NCBI GenBank assembly: GCA_016178265.1
Contig: JACOTS010000134.1
Span: 1 to 35,711, forward strand
Reading direction: 5' to 3'
Length of the DNA: 35,711 nt
Source of the DNA: Candidatus Melainabacteria bacterium
GTDB taxonomy: Bacteria; Cyanobacteriota; Vampirovibrionia; 2-02-FULL-35-15
Shown piece after piece: positions 1-31,474 of the stretch. Under the pieces are notes generated by a model, which was not told the DNA's origin, searched no databases, and saw only the letters and a list, made by a program, of their open reading frames with translations. Position numbers and translations under genes: made by a program. How positions within the stretch are numbered: the first letter of the stretch is position 1; every line of letters starts with the position of its first letter.

Positions 1-239
1 TATAGTACTTACCTATGTTATTTAATAAAGCCGAGCAGTCTTCCTCAAGTAAAAACTATAAAGAAAGACTTTGAGAGGCAGTCTTTGGAAACCCAGCCCT
101 TAAAAAGGGCTGGGGGATTATAAATAAAGTATCAAACTGCTCGAAAGGGGTGTACTGCTGAGTGTATGAAATGTTAAAAACTACTCTATTTTGCTAAGTG
201 ATTTTTGAGATAGCTTCAAGCGAGCGTTATAATAATCAC

Positions 240-4142: not shown

Positions 4143-4204
4143 ATGAAAATATTTTAATTATACTTTTTATGAGGAATAGATGCGGTACCAAGTTAAAGGA
4201 AAAA

Positions 4205-4286
4205 TAAGCTTTTTGTCCGATTTATTCGGCAAAAAGCGTCGAGGATAAGGAGCGAGTTGAGCGTTAGCGCGAAACGAGCGTTATAG
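4205..4286 (+). repeat. two-hairpin GA-tandem element, copy A (5' of nanE)
   Basis: taagctttttgtccgatttattcggcaaaaagcgtcg...gcGAgttGAgcgttagcgcGAaacGAgcgttatag, immediately followed by the nanE ATG. Confidence 0.9.
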
Positions 4287-4976
4287 ATGATCGAAATTTT
4301 AAGAAATAAAGTTATTGTATCTGTTCAAGCACAGGATAATGAACCATTAAATAAACCAGAGCACCTTCTTGCAATAAGCGAATCTGTTATTAATGGAGGA
4401 GCTGGTGGGCTTAGGCTTTGTGGAGAAGGAAATATTAAGTTTATAAAGGACAAAGTTAATGTTCCAATAATTGGACTTACAAAAATACAACCAACCCCAA
4501 TAAATTTTTTAGATGTGGTTTTTATCACAACCTCATTAAAGGATGCAAGGAAACTTTTGGATTTAGGGATTGAATGCATTGCAATTGATGGAACAGGCAG
4601 ATTGCGCTTGGATGGCTCAACACTTGACGATCAAATTAAACTAATTAAAAAAGAAAAAAGACTGGTTATGGCAGATGTTGCTACTTTTGAGGATGGAATG
4701 AGTGCAGCAGAAAAAGGAGCAGATCTAATTTCTACTACCTTATCAGGTTATACAAAAGAAACTAGATATAAAGCAAATGAAGGACCGGATTTTAAGCTTT
4801 TAGAAGAACTCATGGAAGAATGTCCTGTGCCCGTGATATTAGAAGGACGTATTTGGAATCCTGAAGATGTTAAAACTGCTTTTGAAATAGGAGCTTTTGC
4901 TGTAATTATTGGTACTGCAATAACCCGTCCCCATTTAATTACAAAGAGATTTGTTAGTTTGGTGCCGCAAACTTAA
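4287..4976 (+). CDS. nanE: N-acetylmannosamine-6-phosphate 2-epimerase
   Basis: IVSVQA, VPIIGLTK, MADVAT, TTLSGYT, EGRIWNPE and GTAITRP motifs. Confidence 0.93.
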   Translation: MIEILRNKVIVSVQAQDNEPLNKPEHLLAISESVINGGAGGLRLCGEGNIKFIKDKVNVPIIGLTKIQPTPINFLDVVFITTSLKDARKLLDLGIECIAIDGTGRLRLDGSTLDDQIKLIKKEKRLVMADVATFEDGMSAAEKGADLISTTLSGYTKETRYKANEGPDFKLLEELMEECPVPVILEGRIWNPEDVKTAFEIGAFAVIIGTAITRPHLITKRFVSLVPQT

Positions 4977-13797: not shown

Positions 13798-14847
13798 ATG
13801 AAATTATTTCGCCGCTCATTGTCCATCGTTTTAATTTTTGGACTGATCTTCTGCATGGCCTTCTTATTAAATTTTACAATTGCCCAGGAAGATACTGGTT
13901 ATTATGCACCTGATTATCCAACAACAGACAGTAATCCTGGACATGTTGGTGATCATGGAGATGGTAGCGATTCAAGTCATGATGGCCGCGGTGATACTGA
14001 TACTGATGGCGGTGGTGATACTGATACTGACGGCGGTGGTGATACTGATACTGATGGTGGTGGAGGATTCCCTGGCGGAGGTGGACTTCCCGGTGGCGGT
14101 GGACTTCCCGGCGGCGGTGGATTCCCTGGCGGTGGTGGACTTCCCGGTGGCGGCGGATTACCTGGCGGCGGTGGCGGACTTCCTCCTGGCGGTGGTGGCC
14201 CAATTCCAACTGGCTGTGTAAGTGATTCAGAGTGTAGTCCAGATTGTTGTGTAACTGGTGTATGTGTACCATGTGGTGGACCTGGAGGTACTGGTCCTAG
14301 TGGACCAACTTGTGGAGATGGAATTTGTGAATCAGGAGAAGATGCAACCATGTGCCCAGGTGATTGTGAGACCTGTGGAAACGGATCATGCGGACCTGCT
14401 GAAAACCCGTGTACTTGTGAAGCTGATTGTGGATCTCCTTGCAGTACTGTAAGCGCAGGGACATGCGATCCTTCTACTTGCACAGGTTGTAATGAATGTC
14501 AGACTGTAGATTATCCTGATGCGTGTGGTGGTACATGTCCTATGCAACAATGTGTACCTATTACCCCACCAGCTTGTGGAGGCGGTGATTATAATACCTG
14601 CACAACAGAAACATTAGATTATACTACGTGTACTTGTGTATCTAATACTTATGGAACCCCTGAAACTTGTCCAAATGGTACAACATGTTGCTCAGCAGGT
14701 GGTGTAAGTTGTTGTCCTTCAGATCCTGTTACTACCTCTGGTGGATTTGGAACACAAGGAGGAGGCGGCGGTGGCGATCCTTGTGCAAGCGTATGTTCCG
14801 GAAGTGCATTTAGTAGAGCATGTCAAAGGTGCCTTGCTGCTCCATAG
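13798..14847 (+). CDS. secreted Gly/Pro-repeat, Cys-rich protein
   Basis: signal peptide; AAGGAG RBS; CGDGICESGE..CPGDC motif resembling myxobacterial Cys-rich repeats. Confidence 0.8.
   Translation: MKLFRRSLSIVLIFGLIFCMAFLLNFTIAQEDTGYYAPDYPTTDSNPGHVGDHGDGSDSSHDGRGDTDTDGGGDTDTDGGGDTDTDGGGGFPGGGGLPGGGGLPGGGGFPGGGGLPGGGGLPGGGGGLPPGGGGPIPTGCVSDSECSPDCCVTGVCVPCGGPGGTGPSGPTCGDGICESGEDATMCPGDCETCGNGSCGPAENPCTCEADCGSPCSTVSAGTCDPSTCTGCNECQTVDYPDACGGTCPMQQCVPITPPACGGGDYNTCTTETLDYTTCTCVSNTYGTPETCPNGTTCCSAGGVSCCPSDPVTTSGGFGTQGGGGGGDPCASVCSGSAFSRACQRCLAAP
13990..14199 (+). repeat. coding tandem repeats (GDTDTDG x3; GGG[FL]PG x~6)
   Basis: 21-bp and 18-bp tandem units visible in the DNA. Confidence 0.85.
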
Positions 14848-19500: not shown

Positions 19501-20739
19501 GCAAAAGGTGCTGATATGATGGGCGGAACAAAAGATCTTGTTATGCTTGCTCATGAAGCATCTAAGAAAGATGCTAAAGCACCTGTCATTCGTACAGTTA
19601 TGCATGCTCTATTTTCAAATGGAAAAGGAGTGGATGAGATAAAAGCTCTTGGATTTCCAGCTGACGTTGCTGACAATGCATGCGCAATGTATAAGATGGT
19701 AAATGAACAAGAGTACTGGCTTGGCAAAAAAGAAGACAGGAAATTTACAGGTGAAGGAGTAGAAGTAGCAATAGTTGACGGTGGCTATGTATATCCTCTA
19801 GATATTAAAGGTTTTGAAGGACTAAAAGAACGTATTGTATATCCTGAAAAACTAGTTACATGGTCAGACCTTACAACTTGGCTTGACTTACATCCTACAA
19901 TGGTAGCTTCTACTTTGCATAAAGCTGCACCAGCAAGTGCAAGTGATAAGATTCACTCTTATAGCTTCATGGCAAGTATTCCTGAAACACCGTTTAGACC
20001 ATGGGGTACTCAGGATTCAGCGTTGTATGCGCTTGAAGATATTGCACAAAATAAAATAGCAGGCGAGTCGAATGTCGAGCTCATTAACTATTCATGGGGA
20101 TATATTAACTTTATCCTTGCGAATGAAAAAATGAGATCTGACTTTATTGATATTGCTTCTGCATACATGGAAACGTTAAGTAAAATAAACACCATGCATA
20201 CAGTTGCTGCAGGAAATGAGCATGGAGCATTCCCAGCATTTGTAAGATATGGTTCAGTTGGTGAGTTAAATGTGCTTGGGCTTAGAATGGACAGCAACAA
20301 TAAATTCACAAAGCCTGATGGTGTGTTTTATGCATCAGCTATGGATAAGTATGCAGACAGGCTTGCTGAGTTTACATCTAAGCAAGATCCACTTCGAGCA
20401 GCAGAAGCAATAACAATGCTTAGCTTCCAAGGTGTTCATGTACTAGTTCCTTATCCTCTTGACGGAGCTTGGGATGTACAACCTGTAAATGGAACTTCAT
20501 TTGCAGCACCTAATAACGAAGCAGTGCTTGCATGGGGTCTTAGTGCTCGAAAGAAACTAGGGCTTCCTGAACTCTCAGCTTCTGATTGGGAAACACTCCT
20601 TCAAAGGTCAAACAAACACTTTCCACAAAGGGAAAATTGGGAAGGTGGGAAATACTTTGATGCTACCCAATTTATGAAAGATGCAACAACCTTTAAAGCT
20701 GATGTTAAACAACCAGCGGTTGCAGAGGCTAATAAATAG
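16504..20739 (+). CDS. large exported protein with C-terminal S8 (subtilisin-like) peptidase domain
   Basis: VAIVDGG (Asp), LHPTMVAS (His), AAGNE (oxyanion Asn), GTSFAAP (Ser); helical N-terminal region; GGAGG RBS. Confidence 0.8.
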   Translation: MPSITSVNHTLGNGKGLVTQNDVTSEDKVRGSSKQSNKGLSRATSFVAKAVASLALLMPLIDASSVDAANNPEREKAVAKFGDDSWAALRDALKQDKLKDLPNARSLWNNIKAVLHVSDDTKIEAVDALRKELISTGIKNSNIPPEIVHEAIYTTSVVAQSINKDLAANNKKLAELDKKMAELATKSEGITKNGGQLSKEMTDEKAKFDSDKATLIAENKTLEGRLAKIIEPVVPFMGKIIVDVTKEGGKEERFLVRPSEVGRFYGGDDLFASGPSYEKVKVYNSNNFENLAAYTLAQAGEKGFFEKVGRELLTSGNDEARRDEFFNIFKYTGSDVTLPKDVTEKSKEWIYGRKQMEAFNKGDAAAAEPASSNTDIEFEIIEPDNAKDKAPVDKGVKDSQPVPPGSTVIVLPPGTEIGTAKKHPTPDVPRGASYGSIEELRKINEKLVKPLLPYPYSKSASDQDFIADNVLMLAKHGDELALPACAQWFAIKSYSEGSSGGGFFSSASPADMKMLEALSIMAQKDEVAFTVLERYIGSFPKQFERTFLYGTYALWDSPQKRAGAEMIKALNLHKDNAKNLVTALSNKETKLIWPEPMSDTDVEHVNKLRDAGRSVALMIMAFDDKAHNFTPYLRDIVKNDFAKDMERFVSMIGVALAKDKESVEPLLNIAIDETKPMGMRELALDAVLYIDRPDLIPAAIREKEAEGSPFTGAKLRHFFPNLIERTKPETETDFCAAIEGKNPFQARIKAQYDRWLTLENAAIESAKAKGGAPGTITDAQKLGAFIELRERELGGTGMALSGRAGDATFSSKYVKPMVNYLKDHRDIKKPLYWGIAYSMMDVLGKSNATEAAPLLRDMATYPEIYVQDNSRGQGFFGFFDVLFNNFEMSLIKANAIKNLGGVVDLKNPASDEAKVLHLVALKDSSLDYRWMAQKGQRELARRYDSAMAGLKPGDATFDELSKARAAHASEMVGQMQYHAEGREYETQMRLFDLREQFMLAKGADMMGGTKDLVMLAHEASKKDAKAPVIRTVMHALFSNGKGVDEIKALGFPADVADNACAMYKMVNEQEYWLGKKEDRKFTGEGVEVAIVDGGYVYPLDIKGFEGLKERIVYPEKLVTWSDLTTWLDLHPTMVASTLHKAAPASASDKIHSYSFMASIPETPFRPWGTQDSALYALEDIAQNKIAGESNVELINYSWGYINFILANEKMRSDFIDIASAYMETLSKINTMHTVAAGNEHGAFPAFVRYGSVGELNVLGLRMDSNNKFTKPDGVFYASAMDKYADRLAEFTSKQDPLRAAEAITMLSFQGVHVLVPYPLDGAWDVQPVNGTSFAAPNNEAVLAWGLSARKKLGLPELSASDWETLLQRSNKHFPQRENWEGGKYFDATQFMKDATTFKADVKQPAVAEANK

Positions 20740-20759
20740 CAGAAGACAAGCTGAACTTT

Positions 20760-20791
20760 AGGGTCAGGTTTAAGTTAAATCTGACCCTTTT
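20760..20791 (+). terminator. intrinsic terminator
   Basis: AGGGTCAGGTTTA-agt-TAAATCTGACCCT followed by Ts. Confidence 0.75.
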
Positions 20792-20861
20792 AATTATTTG
20801 TAGGGTTAACATTGGTTTCTAATATTTGTTTAGGGAATGCTTAATTTATAAGGGTGTTTCT

Positions 20862-21110
20862 ATGAAAGCTGTATTGTTGGCTTTAATTGTGTGCATGGGG
20901 CCTTACTCCTGTTCTTATGCTGCTACAGAGGACTCCTTAACAGGTTTTGTTAATAATTCTTTGCAAGGAATCACAGGAAGTGTAACATTTGAAAATACTG
21001 ATTCTGCAACAGAAGGAGCATACGAATATTTTCTTAATGATTATCATTATCTAGACAGTGATGTTAAGTTGGATCTAGATCCCGCTTCTACAGAGAATTA
21101 CCCAAAATAG
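20862..21110 (+). CDS. small secreted hypothetical protein
   Basis: MKAVLLALIVC..SYA signal-like N-terminus. Confidence 0.6.
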   Translation: MKAVLLALIVCMGPYSCSYAATEDSLTGFVNNSLQGITGSVTFENTDSATEGAYEYFLNDYHYLDSDVKLDLDPASTENYPK

Positions 21111-21111
21111 C

Positions 21112-21159
21112 TTATTTCTTCTTTCCAGTGATTATGGGTTCTGCTACGCTAGCTGGGAC
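21112..21159 (-). pseudogene. displaced duplicate of the fusA 3' end ([15 protein letters not shown])
   Basis: 48 bp encoding the same 15 aa plus stop as 21246-21293, with 8 third-position differences. Confidence 0.95.
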
Positions 21160-21248
21160 CTTGTTTTTATACCGCTCGCCTCGTGCGAACACTCGGCTCG
21201 CTTGTAAAGTCACGACGCATTTTGCCAAGTGAATTGGACAAAATGCTA
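21160..21248 (-). repeat. two-hairpin GA-tandem element, copy B (3' of fusA)
   Basis: minus strand TAGcattttgtccaattcacttggcaaaatgcgtcg...gcGAgccGAgtgttcgcacGAggcGAgcggtataaaaacaa. Confidence 0.9.
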
Positions 21249-23324
21249 TTTCTTTTTGCCAGTTATAATAGGCTCAGCTACGCTAGCTGGGACTTCTTCG
21301 TATGCGGCAAATTCCATAGTAAATGTCCCTTGACCTTTGGTTCTATTTCTTATGTCTGTTGCATATCCAAACATTTCAGATAAAGGCACCTTGCCGTTTA
21401 CTTTTGAAAGTCCTCTTTCTGTAGTCATTCCTTCAACACGTCCGCGCCTTGAAGAAACATCCCCAATCACATCACCCATAAACTCTTCCGGGACCTCAAT
21501 TTCAAGATTCATTACAGGTTCCAAAAGAGTTGGTTTTGCTTTCATAAAACCTTCTTTAAATGCCATAGAACCTGCAATCTGAAATGCCATATCTGAAGAA
21601 TCTACATCATGGAAACTTCCATCATGAAGTGTAATTCTAAGATCAATTACAGGATACCCTGCAAGCACCCCACCTGCCATAGCTTCTTTAACTCCTTTTT
21701 CAACCGCAGGAATATATTCTTTTGGAATAATACCACCTACAATTTTGTTTACAAACTCAAATCCTGAGCTTCTTTCAAGCGGTTCCACGTCAATAACAAC
21801 GTGACCATATTGACCACGACCGCCAGATTGCCTGATATATTTTCCTTCTTGAGTAACTCTGGCTTTGCAGGTTTCACGGTATGCAACTTGTGGTTTACCT
21901 ACATTAGCCTCCACTTTAAACTCTCTTAAGAGCCTATCTACAAGAATTTCAAGATGAAGTTCTCCCATTCCTGAAATAATTGTTTGCCCTGTTTCATGAT
22001 CCACATGCACTTTAAAGGTAGGATCTTCTTCTGCAAGTTTTTGAAGTGAAAGCCCAATTTTTTCTTGATCTGCCTTTGTTTTTGGTTCAATTGCAACCGA
22101 TATAACAGGATCAGGGATATGAAGAGACTCAAGAATAATTGGCTTTTTCTCATCGCAAAGAGTATCTCCTGTAGAGGTATCTTTTAAACCAACTACAGCA
22201 CAAATATCTCCTGCATATACTTCGTCTACTTCTTTTCTATCATCAGCCTGTAGTTTTACTATACGACTAATTCTTTCTTTTGCGTCCTTGCTTGCATTAT
22301 AAATATAGCTTCCTGCCTTCAGGCAACCGCTATATACCCTAATAAAGGTCAGTCTTCCAACAAAAGGATCTGTCATTATTTTAAATGCAAGTGCTGCAAA
22401 AGGTTCATTATCATCTGACTTACGTTGTATTTCAGATCCATCTTTTAAAATCCCTTTTATAGCTTCAACCTCAGTTGGGTTTGGCAAGTAATCTACTACT
22501 GCATCAAGAAGCTGTTGAACACCTTTATTTTTAAAAGCAGATCCACATGTAATTGGAATTATCTGTAATTTGCATACAGCATTGTGAAGTGCTTGCTTGA
22601 GCTCAGGAACAGGAATTTCTTTACCCTCTAAATATCTGCTCATTAAATCATCATTGGTTTCAACTATGGCTTCTACAAGTTTTTCTCTTAATTCTTTTGC
22701 TTTGTCCATAAGCTCAGTAGGAACATCAACCGTGTCAAATTTTCTTCCCATCTTATCGGTTTCATCGTAGATGTATGCTTCCATCTCAAGAAGGTTTACG
22801 ACACCTTTTAACTGATCTTCAGATCCTACCGGGATTTGAATTGGGTGTGCATTGACTTTAATTTCATTAATTACTTGACTTACAACCTTGAAAAAGTCGG
22901 CACCTGTTCTATCCAATTTGTTTACAAAAATAATCCTAGGTACTTTATATCTGTCAGCTTGTTTCCAAACAGTTTTTGTTTGAGGTTGTACCCCGCCTAC
23001 GCCGCAAAGAACAATTACAACGCCGTCAAGCACTCTCATAGAACGCTCAACTTCAATGGTAAAGTCAACGTGACCAGGGGTATCAATTAAGTTTATATAC
23101 TTATCTTTCCATGTGGTTGAAATAGCTGCAGCAGTTATGGTAATTCCTCTTTCTTTTTCTTGTGCCATCCAGTCTGTAACTGTAGTACCTTCATGGACCT
23201 CGCCAATCTTATGAACAAGTCCTGAGTAAAATAAAAACCTTTCTGTGGTTGTGGTCTTTCCTGCATCAATATGAGCAGCAATTCCCATGTTAATTGTTTT
23301 ATCTAATGGTATTTGACGTGGCAC
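21246..23324 (-). CDS. fusA: elongation factor G
   Basis: [26 protein letters not shown] and GMGELHL motifs; GTG start with AAGGAG RBS. Confidence 0.98.
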
Positions 23325-23337
23325 AATGATCTCCTTT

Positions 23338-23425
23338 TTGTTTTTATAACGCTCGTTTCGCGCGAACGCTCAACTTGCTTTTCCCCTTCGACGCTTTTTG
23401 CTGAGTAAATCAGACAAAAAGCTTA
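23338..23425 (-). repeat. two-hairpin GA-tandem element, copy C (5' of fusA)
   Basis: minus strand taagctttttgtctgatttactcagcaaaaagcgtcg...gcAAgttGAgcgttcgcgcGAaacGAgcgttataaaaacaa, followed by the RBS. Confidence 0.9.
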
Positions 23426-23515
23426 GCTTTATAATAGGATACGGTATAACCCAATAAGTTTCCAAGATATTTTAAATTCTTTTAACATTAGAGATAGCAA
23501 ATAGCATTTAACTAT

Positions 23516-24424
23516 GTGCTATACGATATTATTATAGAAGTGTTTTTTGACTTCTTACAACTGCTTTTGCACTATGGAATAACCATAATTCCTGCCTTTT
23601 TAGTAGCTCTTTTAATCTCAGCAATACTTGTAGAGTTTATACCAGAATGGGTTTATGAACGAATATTAGGGTCAAACCAATTTTTATTTATTTTGCTTGC
23701 AAGTTTTGTCGGAGCATTAATACCTATATGTACATGTGGGATGATCCCACTTGCTGGAAAATTGCATAAAAAAGGAGCTTCGTGGCTTATAGTAGTTGCA
23801 TTTTTAACAGCAGGCAATGCAAGTAGTATAACTTCATTAATTATGACCCTTGTAATGGGCACAGGAATTACATTTGGGAGGTTTGTTTTTGCAGTAATTT
23901 TTGGGCTTTTAGTTTCTTATATTTTTGTATTAATTTTTAAACCTAAAAGTTTGTTGTCAGAAAATGGTGGGCATTCTGATAATATAACAATTTCTAAAAA
24001 GGAAAAAATCACAAATGAGTTTGTAATCCTTGTAAAAAACTTTGGACCATGGGTGATTGCTGCTGTACTTATTGCAGCTTTTATCTCGCTCTTTTTGTCA
24101 TATGAATTTGTAGTTAGCTTTGCAGGGGTTGGAAATACTTTTGCCCCGTTTGTGTTTGGTGTAGTTGGGTTCCCTTTTTATTTTTGCGCAGGAGCAGATA
24201 TTCCAATTAGTAGTGCACTACTGGCAAAAGGTGCAGGGCTTGGAAGCATTTTATCCTTCATGACTGCCTCACCAGGGGTTAATCTTACAACTCTTCTTAT
24301 TTATCAAAAATGGCTTGGGCTTAAAAACTCTATTATTTATTTAATTATTTCTGTTTTGATTTGTGGAATACTTGGAATGAGAGTTAACTTTTTTATGCTT
24401 CCAATTTCGCCATATCCGTTTTAG
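23516..24424 (+). CDS. DUF318/ArsP family permease
   Basis: multiple TM helices; PICTCGMIP and YFCAGADIP motifs. Confidence 0.85.
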   Translation: MLYDIIIEVFFDFLQLLLHYGITIIPAFLVALLISAILVEFIPEWVYERILGSNQFLFILLASFVGALIPICTCGMIPLAGKLHKKGASWLIVVAFLTAGNASSITSLIMTLVMGTGITFGRFVFAVIFGLLVSYIFVLIFKPKSLLSENGGHSDNITISKKEKITNEFVILVKNFGPWVIAAVLIAAFISLFLSYEFVVSFAGVGNTFAPFVFGVVGFPFYFCAGADIPISSALLAKGAGLGSILSFMTASPGVNLTTLLIYQKWLGLKNSIIYLIISVLICGILGMRVNFFMLPISPYPF

Positions 24425-25143
24425 AGGGAGAACACGAGATCAAATGTTTTAATCTCTTTCTTTGCTCTTGTATTTATGTGCTTTTGCAGTAATTTAAGAG
24501 CTCCTCTTTTTGTTTCCATATCGCTATTTGTTTGTATAGTAGGTAAGCCAAGTATATCTAATATTCCATTGGAAATTGATATATGATCAATAGCAAGGCA
24601 TTCATCGCATAAAAGTCCACCAAGGATACTTGAGTAGGGGTAAGTATCCTTGCTTTTAACGATTTCCTTGCTACATGCTACACAGGTTTCAAGCTGTGGT
24701 TTTAGTCCATGAAGGGACAAAAATTGAATAATAAATCTTATAGCTACTGTTTCGGGGGATTTGCTTGTTTGCAATTCATCAAGCATTGAATAAAGAAGTT
24801 CAAAGATATGATTGCTTTCTTCTTCTTCTTCTTGTGCAAAATTGTTAACTATATCCAAAAATAAAATTCCGTAAAATAAAAGATTAGAGCTAGATCTTAG
24901 TTTTGGAAAAGTAGTTATTTGTTCAATGTCACAAAGAGTGTCTAAATTTTTCCCTTTGGCAAATTGAAAAAAAGAGCAATACAAGAGGTCTGTTCTACCA
25001 GAAAATTTCCCACTTGGCTTTTTAGCTCCTTTTGCAATACACCTTACTAAACCGTTTTCTTTGGTATATATGTTAAGTATTTTATCTGCTTCAGATAAGT
25101 TAAAACTTTTTAAGATAATGCCTTGATCATTGTATGAGGGCAT
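24421..25143 (-). CDS. recO: DNA repair protein RecO
   Basis: GIILKS..LSEADKIL, AKGAKK and CxxC...CxxC zinc motifs; ATG 25143 preferred over GTG 25173. Confidence 0.92.
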   Translation of the reverse strand: MPSYNDQGIILKSFNLSEADKILNIYTKENGLVRCIAKGAKKPSGKFSGRTDLLYCSFFQFAKGKNLDTLCDIEQITTFPKLRSSSNLLFYGILFLDIVNNFAQEEEEESNHIFELLYSMLDELQTSKSPETVAIRFIIQFLSLHGLKPQLETCVACSKEIVKSKDTYPYSSILGGLLCDECLAIDHISISNGILDILGLPTIQTNSDMETKRGALKLLQKHINTRAKKEIKTFDLVFSL

Positions 25144-25297
25144 GAATGTAAAGACCAAAAAAAATGCTATCACTTAGAATTTTAAGAGACTTTTACATAT
25201 TTTGCGTTAAAATATAAAGCTTTGATTAATTTAATTCCTAAATAGCCAATAAGTGATTGTAGGATGGTAAGTTGGTTATTATCTAGCTGAGATGGAG

Positions 25298-25335
25298 GAG
25301 CGAGTCGAGTGTTCGCACGAGACGAGCGATTATAA
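25298..25335 (+). repeat. GA-tandem element, copy D (hairpin 2 only, 5' of HTH gene)
   Basis: gagcGAgtcGAgtgttcgcacGAgacGAgcgattataa directly before the ATG. Confidence 0.85.
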
Positions 25336-25662
25336 ATGACAAGTGAAAGAGAAGTTGTTAGGCAAGATGTTCCTCAAGAAGTAGAAGCAGACTTAACTGA
25401 TGAGACAAGAGTTGCTCTAGCACTTTATTTAAAAGTATATTCTGAAGGAAAAGTTACCCCGCAAGGCATTATAGTGCCTGAGTTAAATATTCATAAGCTG
25501 GCACATGCTGCAGAAGTTCCAAACAGGCAAGTAAGCAAAACTTTTGAAAGACTTAGAGGAAAAGGATTTTTAGGAAACCTTCCTTCAGGGCATCTTGTTG
25601 TCAAAAACCTAGAAGAGTTTCAACAATGGTTAGTTAGCCAAGGCGCATCAATTGATGTGTAA
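25336..25662 (+). CDS. small winged-HTH (Crp-type) DNA-binding protein
   Basis: LNIHKLAHAAEVPNRQVSKTFERLRGKGFL..LVVKNLEE resembles a Crp C-terminal HTH. Confidence 0.65.
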   Translation: MTSEREVVRQDVPQEVEADLTDETRVALALYLKVYSEGKVTPQGIIVPELNIHKLAHAAEVPNRQVSKTFERLRGKGFLGNLPSGHLVVKNLEEFQQWLVSQGASIDV

Positions 25663-25745
25663 GCTTTTGTCCAACTTGTTTGGCAAAAGCGTCGAGGATC
25701 AAAGAAGCGAGTTGAGTGTTCGCACGAAACGAGCGGTATAAAAGT
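25660..25745 (+). repeat. two-hairpin GA-tandem element, copy E (3' of HTH gene)
   Basis: TAAgcttttgtccaacttgtttggcaaaagcgtcg...gcGAgttGAgtgttcgcacGAaacGAgcggtataa. Confidence 0.9.
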
Positions 25746-25804
25746 AGTTTCAACAATGGTTAGTTAGCCAAGGCGCATCAATTGACGTTTAAGCTTTTGT
25801 CCAA
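25746..25804 (+). pseudogene. duplicate of the HTH gene 3' end plus the start of another element copy
   Basis: 59-bp direct repeat of 25616-25674 with 2 synonymous differences. Confidence 0.93.
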
Positions 25805-25813
25805 ATTAAAAAA

Positions 25814-26038
25814 CTATTCTGCTGCTTCTTCTTCTCGAGGTACGCATGTACCGTAATCAGTACCTTCTTCTATTTCACATTCAAATTTATCAGGATTACA
25901 ACAAGGATCCCAACTAGGTGGATCTCCGCATACGCCTCCTTCAACAGCACAAGAGCAAAGCCCATTTTGAATTGGCAGTGCGGCCAGGCAAAAGGCAAGA
26001 GGTATAAGGACTATTAGTTTCTTTATAAAATTGTTCAT
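25814..26038 (-). CDS. small secreted Cys-rich (knottin-like) peptide
   Basis: signal peptide followed by C-X6-C-X8-CC-X6-C-X10-C. Confidence 0.7.
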   Translation of the reverse strand: MNNFIKKLIVLIPLAFCLAALPIQNGLCSCAVEGGVCGDPPSWDPCCNPDKFECEIEEGTDYGTCVPREEEAAE

Positions 26039-26197
26039 AAGTTTCCTACAGAGTTTTACAGCTAGTTATCTTATACCCACTGCCTGTGACGCAAAGCAAC
26101 AAAAATCCTAATATGAGTTATTTTTAACCTAAATTCCTCTATTTACAGTACCTGTTTAAATTGAAGTTAACATTGAATTCTAAGGGGAATCCCTATG

Positions 26198-27259
26198 TCA
26201 GGCTATGACAGAGGTATTGAAAAGTTCTTTTATTTCTTTTTTATAGTCCCCTTCAACTATCCCTTTTTCTGTGATTATGCCTTTAATATATTCTCTAGAG
26301 GTAATGTCAAAAGCAGGATTAAAAGCCTGTGTAGAAGGGTGGCATATTAATCCTTCATTAATTAGTGTTACTTCCTTTTCATCTCTATTTTCAATAGGAA
26401 TTTTGTCTCCTGTTTCAATACTTAAATCAAAAGTGGAAAGAGGTGCTGCTATATAAAATGGTATGTTGTTTTCTTTTGCAAGTACTGCAAGTTGGTAGGT
26501 ACCTATTTTATTTGCTGTATCACCGTTGCTTGCAATTCTATCTGCTCCAGCAATAACAATATCAATAAATCCTTTTTTCATAAGGTATCCGCAAGCAGTA
26601 TCTGAAATTAATGTGCAATTTATTCCATTTTCAATACACTCGAAAGTTGTTAATTTGGCCCCTTGTTGTCTGGGCCTGGTTTCGCTTGCAAAAACTTTTA
26701 TTGATGGATCATATTGATGTGCAGTTAAAATAATCCCAAAAGCTGTTCCAATGCCTCCGGTTGCAAGTGCCCCTGTATTGCAGATAGTAAGAATACCTGC
26801 TCCTTTTGGAATAACTTTAGAACCATATCTGCCTATATTTGCACACCTTTGCGCATCATCTTCATGAATCCAAATAGCACGTTTTTTTAAGGCAGTAATT
26901 ATTTCAAGTGTGTCATCTAACGAGGCAACTTCATGTAACATTAAATCTACTGCCCATCTCAAGTTAATTGCGGTTGGCCTTGCGTTTTTAATTTCCTCAC
27001 CAATTGCTTTAAGTTTATTGATTAACTTTTTACCTTCAAGTTTTTTGTATTCAAGTGCTGCAAGAAATATGCCATATGCAGCAGCAATTCCTATTAAAGG
27101 AGCACCCCTTACAGACATATTTTTAATTGCACGGGTAACTTCGGTATAAGACCTTGCTTTTATGTACTTTTTAGATAACGGTAATACTCTTTGATCAAGC
27201 AAAGATAATTCATCGTTTTCTAACTTAATAGGTTGAATCTTAGAATTTATCTTTTGCAT
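26198..27259 (-). CDS. mtnA: S-methyl-5-thioribose-1-phosphate isomerase
   Basis: LDQR, VRGAPLIG, RPTAINL, CNTGALAT, ETRP, GADRI and ANKIGTY motifs. Confidence 0.95.
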   Translation of the reverse strand: MQKINSKIQPIKLENDELSLLDQRVLPLSKKYIKARSYTEVTRAIKNMSVRGAPLIGIAAAYGIFLAALEYKKLEGKKLINKLKAIGEEIKNARPTAINLRWAVDLMLHEVASLDDTLEIITALKKRAIWIHEDDAQRCANIGRYGSKVIPKGAGILTICNTGALATGGIGTAFGIILTAHQYDPSIKVFASETRPRQQGAKLTTFECIENGINCTLISDTACGYLMKKGFIDIVIAGADRIASNGDTANKIGTYQLAVLAKENNIPFYIAAPLSTFDLSIETGDKIPIENRDEKEVTLINEGLICHPSTQAFNPAFDITSREYIKGIITEKGIVEGDYKKEIKELFNTSVIA

Positions 27260-27278
27260 AAGCAATATTTTAATGATA

Positions 27279-28139
27279 TCAGATTGAACTAAATTTTAAA
27301 TCAGAATAAATTATTTTGCTTATTTCTTTTATAAACTTTTGCCCGCTTAAATCGTTCCAAGGTCTTTTTACTATTATTGAGATCCCTATTCTTTTTTGAA
27401 ATGGCAAATAAATAATTCCTGCATCACCCACACAAGTGCCCACTGTTCCTGTTTTATGAGGGAAGGAGGTAAATTTACCAATACCTTGTTTAATTAATGC
27501 TTTATTTTTAACTTTTGTCAAAGTTCTTTTTAAGTATTTTCTGGAGTCGTTACTTAAAAGACTTCCTTCAAGGGATTTTTCAAATAATGCAACTAAATCT
27601 CGCGGACTTATTTTATTTTGACTTTTACTGAAGCTACCGATAGGCTCAATAAGAGCGGTATTTTTTAGTCCTAGTTTTGAAATCTTTTCATTGCACGATT
27701 TTGGACCGCCTAAAAAATCAATAATCATATTTGTTGCTGTATTATCACTGATTGTAAGCATCTGTTCAAAGGCTTGCCTAAGCGAGATCTTTGTTCCTGC
27801 TTTGGCATTTTTCAGGGATCCCGTTCCACTAACTTTGTGCTTATTTAATAGAGTTAAATTCTCATCAAATGAAATTTTTCCTTTGTCGATCTCTTGTAAA
27901 AGAACTACTGCAATTGGTATTTTTATTAAACTTGCTGCAGGAAAAGTCGTATCTCCGTTTATATTAATTTCAGACTGTGTCCAGCTTGGTTTAACATATA
28001 TGCCACAAAATAACTGTGGATATTGTCTCATCTTTGCATTTATTTTTGAAAGTAAAGAAGTAGTTGAGCCTATGTTTTTTGAAATTACTTTTGGGGAATA
28101 GATAAAAAAGGAGAAAAATACTAGAATAGTATAAAGCAT
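27279..28139 (-). CDS. class A beta-lactamase-like serine hydrolase (PBP-A-like)
   Basis: AASLIK (SxxK), SDN and HKTG motifs; signal-like N-terminus from ATG 28139. Confidence 0.85.
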   Translation of the reverse strand: MLYTILVFFSFFIYSPKVISKNIGSTTSLLSKINAKMRQYPQLFCGIYVKPSWTQSEININGDTTFPAASLIKIPIAVVLLQEIDKGKISFDENLTLLNKHKVSGTGSLKNAKAGTKISLRQAFEQMLTISDNTATNMIIDFLGGPKSCNEKISKLGLKNTALIEPIGSFSKSQNKISPRDLVALFEKSLEGSLLSNDSRKYLKRTLTKVKNKALIKQGIGKFTSFPHKTGTVGTCVGDAGIIYLPFQKRIGISIIVKRPWNDLSGQKFIKEISKIIYSDLKFSSI

Positions 28140-28140
28140 T

Positions 28141-28812
28141 ATGAATATTTGTTTTGATCTTGATGGTCCCATAATTGATGTTTCTGATAGATATTATCGG
28201 GCTTATCTTGAGAGTTTAAAAGGGTACGATATTTCCTCTGAGCATATATTATCAAAAGAAGATTTTTGGAAGTTTAAGCAAAATAGGGTTACTGACATTG
28301 AAATTGGTATTTTGACGGGTCTTACCTTTAAAGAAGCTAAGAAATCAGCAGATTTGAGACGTAAAATAACATTCTTAAGTGAATTTTTACCACTGGACAA
28401 ACTTTATGGAGATGTAATTGAAACATTTAACTTTTTAAACTCAAAAGGGATACCATTTTTCATGGCAACCCTTCGCAGGGATAGTCAAATGCAATATGCA
28501 GTAAAGCAGTTTAAGCTTGATAAGTATTTTAATAGCAACTTCCTTTTTGCACTTGAGGAGGAGCAAAAAGTAGAAGGAGATATTCAGGAAAAATACACGC
28601 TTTTTTTTAGCGCAATAAATAAACTGCATTTAAATCCCCAAGAAACGTGGATAATTGGTGATTCTGATACTGATATTCATGCAGCAAGACTTGCAAAGAT
28701 TAAAACAATCGTAGGAATAACTAGAGGAATTAGAAGCAAAGAGCAACTAGAGATATTAGCACCTGATTATATAGTTTCAAATTTGAGGGAATTTGTTAGC
28801 TTGATAAAATAG
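28141..28812 (+). CDS. HAD family hydrolase
   Basis: FDLDGPI motif I and IGDSDTD motif IV. Confidence 0.9.
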   Translation: MNICFDLDGPIIDVSDRYYRAYLESLKGYDISSEHILSKEDFWKFKQNRVTDIEIGILTGLTFKEAKKSADLRRKITFLSEFLPLDKLYGDVIETFNFLNSKGIPFFMATLRRDSQMQYAVKQFKLDKYFNSNFLFALEEEQKVEGDIQEKYTLFFSAINKLHLNPQETWIIGDSDTDIHAARLAKIKTIVGITRGIRSKEQLEILAPDYIVSNLREFVSLIK

Positions 28813-28860
28813 CGTTACTACCTAGCTACCGTAATATTCCCAAGTAAACTATTCAAAAGG

Positions 28861-28966
28861 TAAGGTTTTATCCGATTTATTCGGTAAAATCTTGATAGCA
28901 ATGTTAAGAAGTAGCTAATATATGCACTTTGCAAAACCGGCGAAGCCCATTCGTGGGCGAGCCGGT
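28861..28966 (+). repeat. variant element copy F (hairpin 1 plus a different GA/TTCG hairpin)
   Basis: taaggttttatccgatttattcggtaaaatct and accggcGAAgcccaTTCGtgggcGAgccggt. Confidence 0.7.
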
Positions 28967-29001
28967 GGCAGGCAGAAACAAAATAGCTTTTACGATACTT
29001 G

Positions 29002-30006
29002 TTATCTTAGCTTAGATCCTACTTTTAATAATGCAAATAAAGGGTTTTGTCTTGTTTTTAAATCATCAAGCTCTTCTTCTAACTCTTTGATTTTTTGTCT
29101 TAATCTTAAGGACTGGTGTTCATGTTTTCTTTGAAGGGTCAAAAGTTCTTTTCTGTGTTGATCACTTGACTTAAGATAGTAAGCTTCCCATGCCTTTTGT
29201 TTTCTATCTATCAGCTCTTCTATTTGCTTTTTTAATGTAGAAATTTGTTCTTTATATTGCTCTTCAATTTCTTCTCCTCGGGCTCTAAATTCTTCTTCCA
29301 TTTCATCAATGATTTCTCTTAGTTCTTCTGCTTCAGCTAAATTGTCTTCTGATTTTACAGATAATTCTTCATTCCTTTTTTTTGTTTCTTCAAGCTCTGT
29401 TTCTTTTTTAATCAAGGCTTCATAAAGCTCTTTAGCTTTTTTCCCTTTTATTTTTAATGGGGTTGCACCTTCCTTATATGCAGCAAGAAGGGCTTCTAAT
29501 TGTTTCTTTTGACTTATTGCATCAGCAAGCCTTCTATCCATGCTATCAAGAGTTTTTTGTTTTACTTCTAGCTCTTTTTGAAGCATTGCCATATTTGAGA
29601 TTTCTGAATCTGAATTTAATAAGTCTTCAAGAGTTTTTTCCAGTTCATGAACTCTGCTCCTTAAGCTGGTTAATTCCTGCCTTGCTATATTAAGAGATTG
29701 TTTAAGCCTGTATGTCGGAGATAAAGCAAGGATATTTTTTATTTCATCACTGTGTTCTATATCTGTACTTTTTAATATTTCAGAAACTGAAGAAAGCACT
29801 TTTATTTCATTATTTGAAAGTCCTGAGGCTCTAAGCTTATGAAAAAATTGAATTAGTTTCAGTTCTTCATCAGTAAAGGTATTAATTGCATTATCATCAG
29901 AATTTCCTGCTAGCTCTAGTTCTTGTTCATAAAACAATAGTTCTTCTTCGCTAATATTTAGCTTTTTAAGAAGATCTTCTCTGTCTATTTTTGTTTGTTC
30001 TGCCAT
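29002..30006 (-). CDS. MerR-like HTH plus long coiled-coil protein
   Basis: N-terminal LNISEEELLFYE..FTDEELK..GLSNNEIK; Glu/Lys heptad-rich remainder. Confidence 0.65.
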   Translation of the reverse strand: MAEQTKIDREDLLKKLNISEEELLFYEQELELAGNSDDNAINTFTDEELKLIQFFHKLRASGLSNNEIKVLSSVSEILKSTDIEHSDEIKNILALSPTYRLKQSLNIARQELTSLRSRVHELEKTLEDLLNSDSEISNMAMLQKELEVKQKTLDSMDRRLADAISQKKQLEALLAAYKEGATPLKIKGKKAKELYEALIKKETELEETKKRNEELSVKSEDNLAEAEELREIIDEMEEEFRARGEEIEEQYKEQISTLKKQIEELIDRKQKAWEAYYLKSSDQHRKELLTLQRKHEHQSLRLRQKIKELEEELDDLKTRQNPLFALLKVGSKLR

Positions 30007-31177: not shown

Positions 31178-31474
31178 ATGTTTAATAAGATAAGGATATT
31201 ATTTTACTCACTAGCTCTTATTGTTTTTATGACAGCATGTGCTGCACCAAAGCCAGCTGAAGAAGTAGATGAGCTAGAAGAAGAGTTTGAAGAAGTTCAA
31301 GAAGAAGACGAAACAGAGGAAGCAGTAGAAGAAGCTACAGAAGAAGCACCTGCTGAAACTCCAGCTGAAGCGCCCGCAGCACCAGCTGAAGAAAAAGCAA
31401 TGACTGATTCTGGAGCACAAGGTGAAGCAGAAGAAGCTACAGCACCTGAAACTGAAGAAACAACAGAAGAATAA
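31178..31474 (+). CDS. acidic low-complexity lipoprotein
   Basis: lipobox MTAC; Glu/Ala-rich; GGAGG RBS. Confidence 0.75.
   Translation: MFNKIRILFYSLALIVFMTACAAPKPAEEVDELEEEFEEVQEEDETEEAVEEATEEAPAETPAEAPAAPAEEKAMTDSGAQGEAEEATAPETEETTEE

Follow-up and report, generated by a model that had tools for sequence, protein, structure and literature searches.

Short, Structured and Mobile Intergenic Repeats of a Previously Undescribed Family in Groundwater Melainabacteria

Results

Copies in the Window

The window analysed here is a stretch of 35,711 nt, contig C149 of the draft genome of a Candidatus Melainabacteria bacterium (G000; 1.87 Mb, 184 contigs, 33.6% G+C, 89.5% completeness). Directly ahead of a gene of the NanE family it carries copy A of a dispersed two-hairpin element, the subject of this work. 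The consensus core of the element consists of hairpin 1, with a bulged T, a purine-rich linker, hairpin 2, with two tandem G·A/A·G pairs, and an A-rich tail, GTATAAA. Hairpin 1 of copy A reads GCTTTTTG-T-CCGA TTTAT TCGG CAAAAAGC, and its linker resembles a Shine–Dalgarno (SD) sequence (Table 1). The site is element-free in the orthologues from 10 other genomes of the family. Upstream of copy A lies a TATACT box whose position is shared with orthologues of the gene at 4287, where it stands 7–13 nt ahead of the ATG; since the box is retained here, copy A is placed within the 5′ untranslated region (UTR) of that gene.

Window copies were located by repeat finding and with a covariance model, trained on the four full copies and run with filters off. 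The full copies match the model at 4205–4290 and 25660–25745 on the plus strand and at 21163–21249 and 23340–23425 on the minus strand (93–105 bits). The first-pass annotation, made from the letters of the window, had described a dispersed two-hairpin element with compensatory changes. The element is real, and the window holds four full copies and one with hairpin 2 only. The copy downstream of fusA has its hairpin 2 at 21174–21201 and a linker, GTGACTTTACA, that is not SD-like. The copy upstream of fusA sits between a conserved promoter-like block and the gene's own SD sequence and GTG (23324), with hairpin 2 at 23351–23378; it is this copy, and not the one named earlier, that carries AA at the first G·A (GCAAG, 23378, minus strand). 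Copy B has hairpin 1 at 25663–25690 and hairpin 2 at 25707–25734. The partial copy is composed of linker GATGGAGGA, hairpin 2 (25300–25327) and tail GATTATAA, immediately followed by an ATG at 25336. In the doubtful remnant near the start of the window, AAGCGAGCGTTATAA resembles the end of hairpin 2 plus the tail and adjoins a fragment found beside truncated copies elsewhere. An end directly before an ATG, as described earlier, is seen for copy A (0 nt after the tail) and the partial copy; the fusA-upstream copy is 20 nt from its GTG. The sense orientation reported for the window copies applies to every one of them, but genome-wide it is merely a bias and no rule.

Table 1. Coordinates of repeat copies and associated features (window positions unless a contig or locus is named; ORF, open reading frame; MITE, miniature inverted-repeat transposon; X1 and X2, first and second copy of a gene end).
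Feature	Position	Strand	Details
Copy A, full element	4205–4286	+	covariance model 105 bits
Copy A, TAAG	4205–4208
Copy A, hairpin 1	4208–4237		8 bp, bulged T, 4 bp, 5-nt loop
Copy A, GTCG	4238–4241
Copy A, linker	4242–4251		AGGATAAGGA; purine, SD-like
Copy A, hairpin 2	4252–4279		GC-GA-GTT-GA-GCG TTAG CGC-GA-AAC-GA-GC
Copy A, tail	4280–4286		GTTATAG; ATG of NanE-family gene (Pfam NanE) directly next, at 4287
TATACT, −10-like box	4159–4164	+	GTGACA 17 nt upstream; match to consensus only, transcription start inferred
Full copy ahead of fusA	23340–23425	−	104.8 bits; neighbour has EF-G domains
Full copy after fusA	21163–21249	−	102 bits; begins at fusA stop TAG (21246–21248)
Full copy (copy B)	25660–25745	+	92.8 bits; begins at TAA stop of ORF 25336–25662
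Partial copy, hairpin 2 only	25287–25335	+	43 bits (model match 25268–25339); no hairpin 1
Doubtful remnant	159–236	+	weak: 10.8 bits, E 0.67; 64% repeat likeness
X2 of fusA	21113–21159	−	last 15 codons and stop, after the element; X1 21247–21293
X2 of ORF 25336–25662	25746–25807	+	last 14 codons, TAA, first 12 nt of hairpin 1; X1 25616–25677
Third gene-end duplication in G000	C163:15101–15303
Second, larger MITE (~165–190 nt)	28812–29001		ends GTTACTACCTAGC...GGCAGAAAC; flanked by 8-bp direct repeat AAAATAGC
Nested insertions in hairpin 2	G004 loci L158–L162; G000 C100:7687, C65:14540–14633		one copy: 20-nt loop insert

Base Pairing of the Core

The base pairing of the two-hairpin core is maintained by selection. 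In a covariance-model-fitted alignment of 58 copies from six genomes, set against 500 shuffles and slid-partner controls, paired cells amount to 99.3% (84.1% in shuffles), 15 of the 20 pairs show two-sided changes and double-change cells number 165, versus 38 in shuffles and 9–23 with slid partners. None of the 500 shuffles reached the observed covariation values. Because an alignment fitted to a model leans towards that model, the count was redone on 117 distinct near-full copies (54 of G000, 63 of other genomes) that nhmmer had aligned by sequence alone; 2130 of 2165 stem cells in this alignment are Watson–Crick. The inner stem of hairpin 1 occurs as GTGA/TCAC, CCGA/TCGG, CCAA/TTGG, CTGA/TCAG and GTAA/TTAC, the first triplet of hairpin 2 as GTT/AAC, GCT/AGC, GCC/GGC and GTG/CAC, and the second as GCA/TGC, GCG/CGC and GTG/CAC. 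The four G·A/A·G columns are kept in 111–116 of the 117 copies and the bulged T in 110; the loop of hairpin 2 is TTCG in 66 and TTAG in 49. Selection on the structure, as proposed in the first-pass annotation, is thus strongly supported by these counts and by compensatory changes at a syntenic locus in three genera, described below. The GTCG that had been taken as a constant part after hairpin 1 is variable: CGTCG occurs in just 41 of the 117 copies, and CGCCG, CGCCA and CGACG are also common.

Stem mismatches in the same alignment comprise 15 G·T, 15 A·C and 5 others; the first two are equal, without the strand asymmetry that wobble pairing in RNA would leave. Folded as RNA, hairpin 2 reaches −7.0 to −11.3 kcal/mol on the strand with the G·A pairs versus −3.0 to −7.1 on the complement, an advantage of 2.4–4.2 kcal/mol, which favours a role of the structure in RNA. 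DNA parameters give weak folds on both strands, not beyond shuffles. Since hairpin 2 contains GTT...GAAAC, a CRISPR repeat was considered and rejected: there is no array of a repeated 22-mer at 50–90-nt spacing anywhere in the genome.

Copy Number and Distribution

Iterated nhmmer returned 77 hits in G000, 52 of them full length, and the covariance model 71 matches at E ≤ 1e-5. The copies are spread over more than 50 contigs, several at contig ends; the assembly is fragmented because many repeat copies lie at such ends. The covariance model was also run on 60 genomes of relatives. It found copies in 10 of the 11 other genomes of the same family, f1 (63, 34, 17, 6, 6, 5, 4, 2, 2 and 1 copies), and in none of the 49 genomes from nine other families in the class. 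A search for the exact hairpin 2 pattern in one genome for each of 185,579 species gave 80 stretches, 72 of which fall in five ‘Candidatus Melainabacteria bacterium’ records, all groundwater metagenome-assembled genomes (MAGs). The remaining 8 are single scattered matches in unrelated, mostly G+C-rich organisms, where about 4 would be expected by chance according to our estimate. Viral contigs held 0 matches to this pattern, and no phage carriage was seen. In two uncultured Ignavibacteria MAGs (loci L056 and L110), the pattern met three copies of an unrelated repeat (GCGAGCAGAGAATTGGGGCGAATCGAGC, then CACCCCTCTCGAGAGGGG), which is probably another family matching by chance.

Comparison with Rfam, attC sites and REP collections had been proposed in the first-pass annotation. 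Rfam (release 15) has no match in the window at gathering scores and none on 4180–4300 at E ≤ 10 with permissive filters; judged on motifs, the element has no attC core sites and no GTAG/CGTC tag. The literature on Melainabacteria repeats and MITEs and on cyanobacterial intergenic hairpins, supplements aside, yielded a general survey of insertion sequences and no account of repeats in this lineage. The element is a previously undescribed family of short structured, mosaic, mobile intergenic repeats, of a kind that is itself known.

Mobile Form and Transposases

In a related genus, the core moves as the interior of a miniature inverted-repeat transposon. In G004, G009 and two named MAG records it lies inside units of 122–125 nt with 13-nt terminal inverted repeats (TIRs) and 8-bp target duplications. 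Each unit is built of left end GTTACTRCCTAGC, about 20 nt containing GTGTATAAGAGCATAAC, TAAG, hairpin 1, the linker, hairpin 2 and right end GGTAGGTAGAAAC; the flanks are unrelated and both orientations occur. Flanking 8-mers are identical at 7 or more of the 8 positions in 43 of 59 distinct TIR-bounded copies, versus 58 of 2000 control pairs. The 28 copies found in G004 at E ≤ 1e-8 show no orientation bias relative to ORFs (5 sense-tandem, 11 antisense-tandem, 7 convergent, 5 divergent; n = 28). In a second subfamily of the relatives, both the ends (GGACTTACGC...GCGTAAGTC) and hairpin 2 are different. Hairpin 2 of some copies is interrupted by a nested 41-nt insert with two hairpins of its own (CCGCTCAG..CTGAGCG plus GCCTCGCC..GGTGGG; Table 1).

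None of 50 aligned flanks of G000 copies shows inverted-repeat ends, the relatives' TIR motif bounds only a different repeat there, and no short fixed-length target duplication was seen by inspection. Such TIR-less copies without target duplication might belong to purely selfish DNA, with hairpins acting as single-stranded DNA (ssDNA) mobilisation structures of the IS200/IS605 or REP/RAYT kind, a strand-specific insertion bias and no role in RNA. The equal numbers of G·T and A·C mismatches are what would be expected without strand selection on RNA, and copy number ranges from 0 to 71 between genomes. The bulged T in a sub-terminal hairpin and the conserved TAAG 5′ of the element also resemble the ends of IS608-type elements, although hairpins 1 and 2 are unrelated to each other, unlike IS608 ends. 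The expected enzymes, however, were not found beside the many copies: Y1_Tnp (PF01797) has 0 matches in the copy-rich genomes G000, G001, G002, G004 and G009, though it is present in 6 of the 12 family genomes, all copy-poor, and a search for the TnpB Zn-ribbon family in the five copy-rich genomes likewise gave 0 of 5. REP superfamilies, as defined in PMC3733652, have an unpaired GTAG or CGTC tag at one end of a 20–40-bp palindrome, and the head tetranucleotide GTCG/CGAC of our element equals neither. Furthermore, the proven mobile form uses TIRs and 8-bp duplications, which is double-stranded DNA cut-and-paste or copy chemistry, so internal hairpins are not needed. We regard the ssDNA explanation as improbable. 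The first-pass annotation had offered an ssDNA recombination or transposition substrate and a cis-acting RNA as its two alternatives; mobility was borne out, but of the TIR and 8-bp-duplication kind, and neither alternative is singled out.

Regarding other enzymes, an IS110 DEDD enzyme was not found in the copy-rich genomes, and the DDE_Tnp_1 ORFs of G000 (one, contig C172) and G009 lie without the repeat's ends. Pairs of the TIR motif 0.6–4 kb apart around a transposase are absent from the drafts of G000 and G004, where pairs bound only MITE-sized units. Because G000 is 89.5% complete, a missing transposase is no proof of absence.

Operons and Start Codons

Copies in G000 occupy 5′ UTRs and intercistronic gaps of operons, and the orthologous gaps that we examined are short and element-free. 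With orientation judged on a crude stop-to-stop ORF map that ignores tRNA genes, 30 copies between co-directional ORFs are sense and 7 antisense (one-sided binomial ~1e-4); three of the seven antisense copies adjoin tRNA genes. Conserved operons with Pfam-named neighbours contain copies in the orders S19–element–L22, L15–elements–SecY and IF-1–element–L36, and both pnt junctions are occupied (pntAA–element–pntAB–element–pntB). The same pnt junctions measure 0–60 nt in six other genomes and are element-free. Copies also precede EF-G, EF-P, RNase J, MetK, TatC, FliQ, CoaD and others.

The start codon of a long ORF lies 6–15 nt past hairpin 2 in 23 of the 68 copies with a recognisable hairpin 2, and the ORF threshold missed at least 5 further start-adjacent copies (for example, before L36). 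The distance from tail to start codon is 6–11 nt in at least 23 copies. The gap between hairpin 2 and the start lacks an SD-like motif in 22 of the 23 start-adjacent copies. In the 12 nt before hairpin 2, on the other side, an SD-like 4-mer occurs in 21 of these 23 versus 23 of the 45 other copies (Fisher p = 0.001), and an SD-like 5-mer in 19 versus 12 (p = 2e-5). In the split ribosome-binding site of phage T4 gene 38, a hairpin brings a distant SD sequence near the AUG. The layout here is alike, with an SD-like sequence 5′ of a 28-nt hairpin in 21 of the 23 start-adjacent copies; in copies such as A (TAAGGAG, hairpin 2, 7 nt, ATG) and the partial copy at 25287 (GGAGGA, hairpin 2, 8 nt, ATG), it is the sole SD-like sequence.

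The tail is also −10-like and stands just upstream of start codons and of tRNA 5′ ends, and one could read TTGAGC in hairpin 2 and TATAAA in the tail as the −35 and −10 boxes of a portable promoter. The spacing between them is 18–19 nt, versus 16–18 nt in a sigma-70-type promoter, and a promoter scan finds no site in any window copy. The supposed −35 drifts from consensus (CCGAGT, CTGAGC, TGGAGC) because the stem arm covaries. TATAAA ends 1–5 nt before the ATG or 2–8 nt before the tRNA +1, too near for a start site, which would be placed 5–9 nt downstream; other tails are directed at the 3′ ends of tRNAs or, between convergent genes, at stop codons. On the grounds of spacing, the covarying −35 and the scans, we reject the promoter as extremely improbable. 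A terminator is rejected as well: an intrinsic terminator scan calls no copy on either strand, and the letters that come after the two hairpins, read in sense, are GCGTCG and GGTATAAA. Without a U-run after either hairpin in that direction, transcription would read through. A faint possibility of termination is left just for antisense copies next to tRNA genes, some of which have TTTT(T) after a weak hairpin.

A purine-rich tract precedes many G000 copies (60 nt upstream; e.g., in contigs C57, C159, C142 and C35, and at 4184–4204 in the window). It has 65.5% A+G versus 50.5% genome-wide and a 7-nt periodicity (GAGATAG GAGTTAG GAAATAG GAATCAG...), with an autocorrelation of 0.367 at lag 7 versus 0.29–0.316 at other lags. 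Between some genes, two or three elements follow one another, with this tract in between. Around start codons in G000, TATA[AC]T boxes cluster with their ends 6–8 nt before the first ATG of long ORFs (18, 20 and 16 cases versus a background of about 3–4), which suggests that a share of this lineage's genes may be leaderless.

Copies Next to tRNA Genes

ARAGORN identified 29 tRNA genes, and the end of an element tail lies 3–9 nt from 7 of them: in three cases the tail faces the 5′ end of a tRNA encoded on the element's own strand, and in four the 3′ end of a tRNA encoded on the other strand. The 5′ end of an element was never within 30 nt of a tRNA among the 29. In copy-poor genera, most copies adjoin tRNA genes (8 of 11 in one named MAG). 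The copy next to tRNA-Met(cat) follows the same four genes in G000 and in a named MAG of another genus, and in a third genus it follows the same four with two extra ORFs between. The three intergenic regions align over the element alone and not over the flanks, with a hairpin 2 apical stem of GCG/CGC, GTG/CAC or GCA/TGC and a hairpin 1 inner stem of GTGA/TCAC or CTGA/TCAG. This pattern would fit either selection on a resident copy or gene conversion from paralogues.

It is reasonable to ask whether the element is a host cis-acting element of tRNA and translation genes, i.e., a protein-binding hairpin, terminator or insulator that was merely captured by the relatives' transposon. The tail-to-tRNA proximity, the predominance of tRNA-adjacent copies in copy-poor genera and the syntenic tRNA-Met copy with compensatory changes in three genera are consistent with it, as is the TTTT or TTTTT that follows the antisense hairpin 2 of some tRNA-adjacent copies. 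However, hairpin 2 folds weakly on the antisense strand (−3 to −7 kcal/mol, with C·U/U·C loops), and not one copy is called as a terminator in either direction. Tails point to 5′ as well as 3′ ends of tRNAs, a placement that no single role in a transcript would explain; gene conversion from paralogues could keep syntenic copies alike, and we know of no protein that binds the element. A host origin of this kind seems unlikely to us.

Beside the tRNA-Met copy of G000 (C102:4700–5060), the 350 nt from an intrinsic-terminator-like hairpin to the copy are filled with repeat fragments (GGATTTGTCTGGTTCATCCAGCAAATCC, GGTTTTGTCCGATTTATTTGGCAAAACC). As fragments of other hairpin repeats fill this region, some intergenic regions are repeat graveyards.

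Duplicated Gene Ends

In 3 of the 77 G000 copies, which start at or near a stop codon, the element is followed by a second copy (X2) of the end of the upstream gene (X1). In these three cases X2 consists of the last 14–20 codons, the stop codon and the first 12–20 nt of hairpin 1, and the duplications measure 47–62 nt. Two of them are in the window (Table 1). X1 and X2 of fusA differ at 8 positions, all of them third codon positions without amino-acid change, and those of ORF 25336–25662 at 2, both third codon positions. Diverged elements after fusA in two other genera (L135, L137) are trailed by the same kind of duplicate, and among 82 distinct copies from other genomes there were 0 gene-end duplications. 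Since duplications are found in only 3 of 77 and 0 of 82 copies, they are no general insertion signature.

The duplicates invite the idea that the hairpin past the fusA stop is a recoding signal and that ribosomes read on into X2, which would then form the end of a longer EF-G, its C-terminus. All 18 X1–X2 differences at four loci are third-position and synonymous, versus 20–24% for random changes. In G000, X2 of fusA is in the −1 frame, open for 114 nt from GGC AAA AAG, so that a slippery-looking AAAAAG is followed by a 6-nt spacer and hairpin 1; in G001, the zero frame past the TAA meets no stop across the entire element and runs on into X2. Nevertheless, stop codons block the path to X2 in G008 and at the second window locus, and two open paths out of four are only mildly unusual (by a rough estimate, a 6–9% chance each). 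Recombination with a diverged allele explains the synonymous-only pattern, and the run of X2 into the first 12–20 nt of hairpin 1 in all three G000 cases points to a duplication or recombination mechanism. Recombination of diverged functional alleles, ending at the element, is favoured over a translated X2, and recoding is very improbable.

Strain Differences and a Second MITE

Strains of this species differ in the elements that they carry. Four other groundwater runs, from four studies, supplied contigs that were aligned to 20500–29500 at 90% likeness. Three runs join 25698 to 25805 with 9 letters between (25699–25804 replaced), i.e., hairpin 2 of copy B and its X2 are absent and hairpin 1 is kept. 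Three runs (labelled X3, X6 and X7) join 28811 to 29002 with 16 other letters between, so that a 190-nt repeat is absent. In runs X3 and X6, contigs diverge at 25285 into sequence like the TAAG/hairpin 1 end of the fusA-upstream copy, and contigs also diverge at 24421/24422, a convergent gene junction that has no element here, into element-like sequence; both of these cases are tentative, as the sides measure 35–37 letters.

The 190-nt repeat is the second, larger MITE of Table 1. It contains a hairpin-1-like stem-loop at 28866–28889 (model match 28861–28904, 25 bits), occurs in at least 22 copies in G000 and is the only repeat bounded by the GTTACTACCTAGC motif there. It also carries a G+C-rich hairpin, CCGGCGAAGCCC...GGGCGAGCCGG, and shares its GTTACTACCTAGC ends with the relatives' transposon.

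Discussion

We interpret the element as a lineage-restricted mosaic intergenic repeat of the MITE/REP/BOX/ERIC type, with a structured core that the host tolerates in its RNA and may even use there, and we consider this reading probable. Its mechanism is inferred here from sequence rather than demonstrated. Copies would be transcribed together with neighbouring genes, and selection would keep only those that are harmless in the shared RNA. The tail would let the downstream gene start translation, in some copies together with the SD-like linker, which the folding of hairpin 2 would bring close to the AUG, and the hairpins may also serve as decay or processing barriers. An RNA-level role, as opposed to a DNA-level one, appears to be favoured by the stability of the G·A strand, the 30:7 sense bias and the presence of copies inside obligately co-transcribed operons.

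Several observations weigh against this interpretation. For the spread of the TIR-less copies of G000, neither a TIR nor a target duplication nor a partner transposase could be found. A search for sequencing runs gave 15 groundwater or soil runs of DNA and none of RNA, and the ORF map behind the sense bias is a crude one. The equal G·T and A·C mismatches give no sign of strand-specific RNA selection and are uninformative as to RNA or DNA. As an isolated 28-mer, hairpin 2 is not more stable than shuffles on either strand (z −0.2 to −1.75). Some proximity to start codons would be expected of any sequence inserted into the short gaps of operons, and the association between linker and start may reflect subfamily ancestry, as the copies are not independent. 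Different from a true split ribosome-binding site, the SD–AUG spacing counted by hand through the hairpin is suitable (7–10 nt) in only about 9 of the 21 copies and 12–19 nt in the rest, and many genes here do without an SD, which is found as an SD-like motif at only about 25% of first-ATG starts in this genome. With unsuitable spacing in most copies and few SDs genome-wide, the split-site idea therefore fits only a minority.

A bolder version can be conceived, in which the core is a portable RNA module kept beyond genus-level time, beside tRNAs with in-place compensatory evolution, and recruited here as a standard intercistronic or 5′-UTR unit for at least 23 genes (ribosomal-protein, SecY and transhydrogenase genes among them). 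The tandem-G·A hairpin would set the SD–AUG geometry and/or bind a dedicated protein, and the fusA gene-end duplications, synonymous-only and in three genera, would mark element-driven recoding or allele replacement. We hold this combination to be rather unlikely.

The interpretation as a mosaic repeat places the element among several known systems without identity to any. As in bacterial MITEs, the relatives' units have TIRs, 8-bp duplications, no coding capacity and widely variable copy number. In contrast, the G000 copies are without inverted ends or target duplication, the core is better conserved than the ends and also stands alone at syntenic sites, a second subfamily has other ends, and no autonomous partner was found in these draft assemblies. 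Mosaic structured intergenic repeats are well known from REP/BIME in E. coli, BOX in pneumococci, ERIC in enterobacteria and Correia in Neisseria. Like them, the element is short, non-coding, hairpin-forming and intergenic, its orientation matters and it is presumably co-transcribed with its neighbours; it is also modular, its modules being hairpin 1, hairpin 2, the upstream purine-rich tract with heptad periodicity and the nested 41-nt inserts. It differs in having no sequence relation to them and neither the GTAG nor the CGTC tag, as these are given in PMC3733652. Two conserved tandem G·A/A·G pairs in hairpin 2 leave a continuous helix on one strand only, the tail lies at the stated short distance from start codons, and copies are found inside ribosomal-protein operons; these are further differences from the mosaic repeats.

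With IS200/IS605 ends and REP/RAYT the element shares imperfect sub-terminal hairpins, an extrahelical T, a strand-asymmetric structure and, in its TIR-less copies, the lack of target duplication; it differs by the absence of a Y1 transposase from the copy-rich genomes searched, by unrelated hairpins and by the missing GTAG tag. Imperfect hairpins with extrahelical bases, a position 3′ of genes in sense and one strand that folds well are likewise features of integron attC sites, but the consensus ends have no R''(RYYYAAC)/R'(GTTRRRY) cores, there is no cassette array and the copies are often in 5′ UTRs.

The work adds a well-defined structured repeat family to the poorly studied non-photosynthetic relatives of cyanobacteria, known only from metagenome bins. 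Three points stand out: the conserved tandem-G·A hairpin, the contrast in copy form between genera and the synonymous-only duplications of gene ends. The lineage offers a natural experiment, in which the same core is randomly oriented transposon cargo in one genus, an end-less, sense-biased occupant of operons and 5′ UTRs in G000, and a syntenic tRNA neighbour. With this contrast, one can test how cells come to tolerate, or make use of, a mobile repeat in their RNA. In practice, the family should be masked or modelled when gene starts are predicted in these genomes.

Two further repetitive stretches of the window lie inside ORFs. Tandem 18- and 24-nt repeats (GGTGGCGGTGGACTTCCC...; TGATGGCGGTGGTGATACTGATAC) at 13980–14202 lie inside ORF 13798–14847 and would code for a Gly/Pro-rich repeat region, and GAA/GCA-rich imperfect repeats at 31261–31471, inside a small ORF, would encode an acidic stretch rich in Glu, Ala and Thr.

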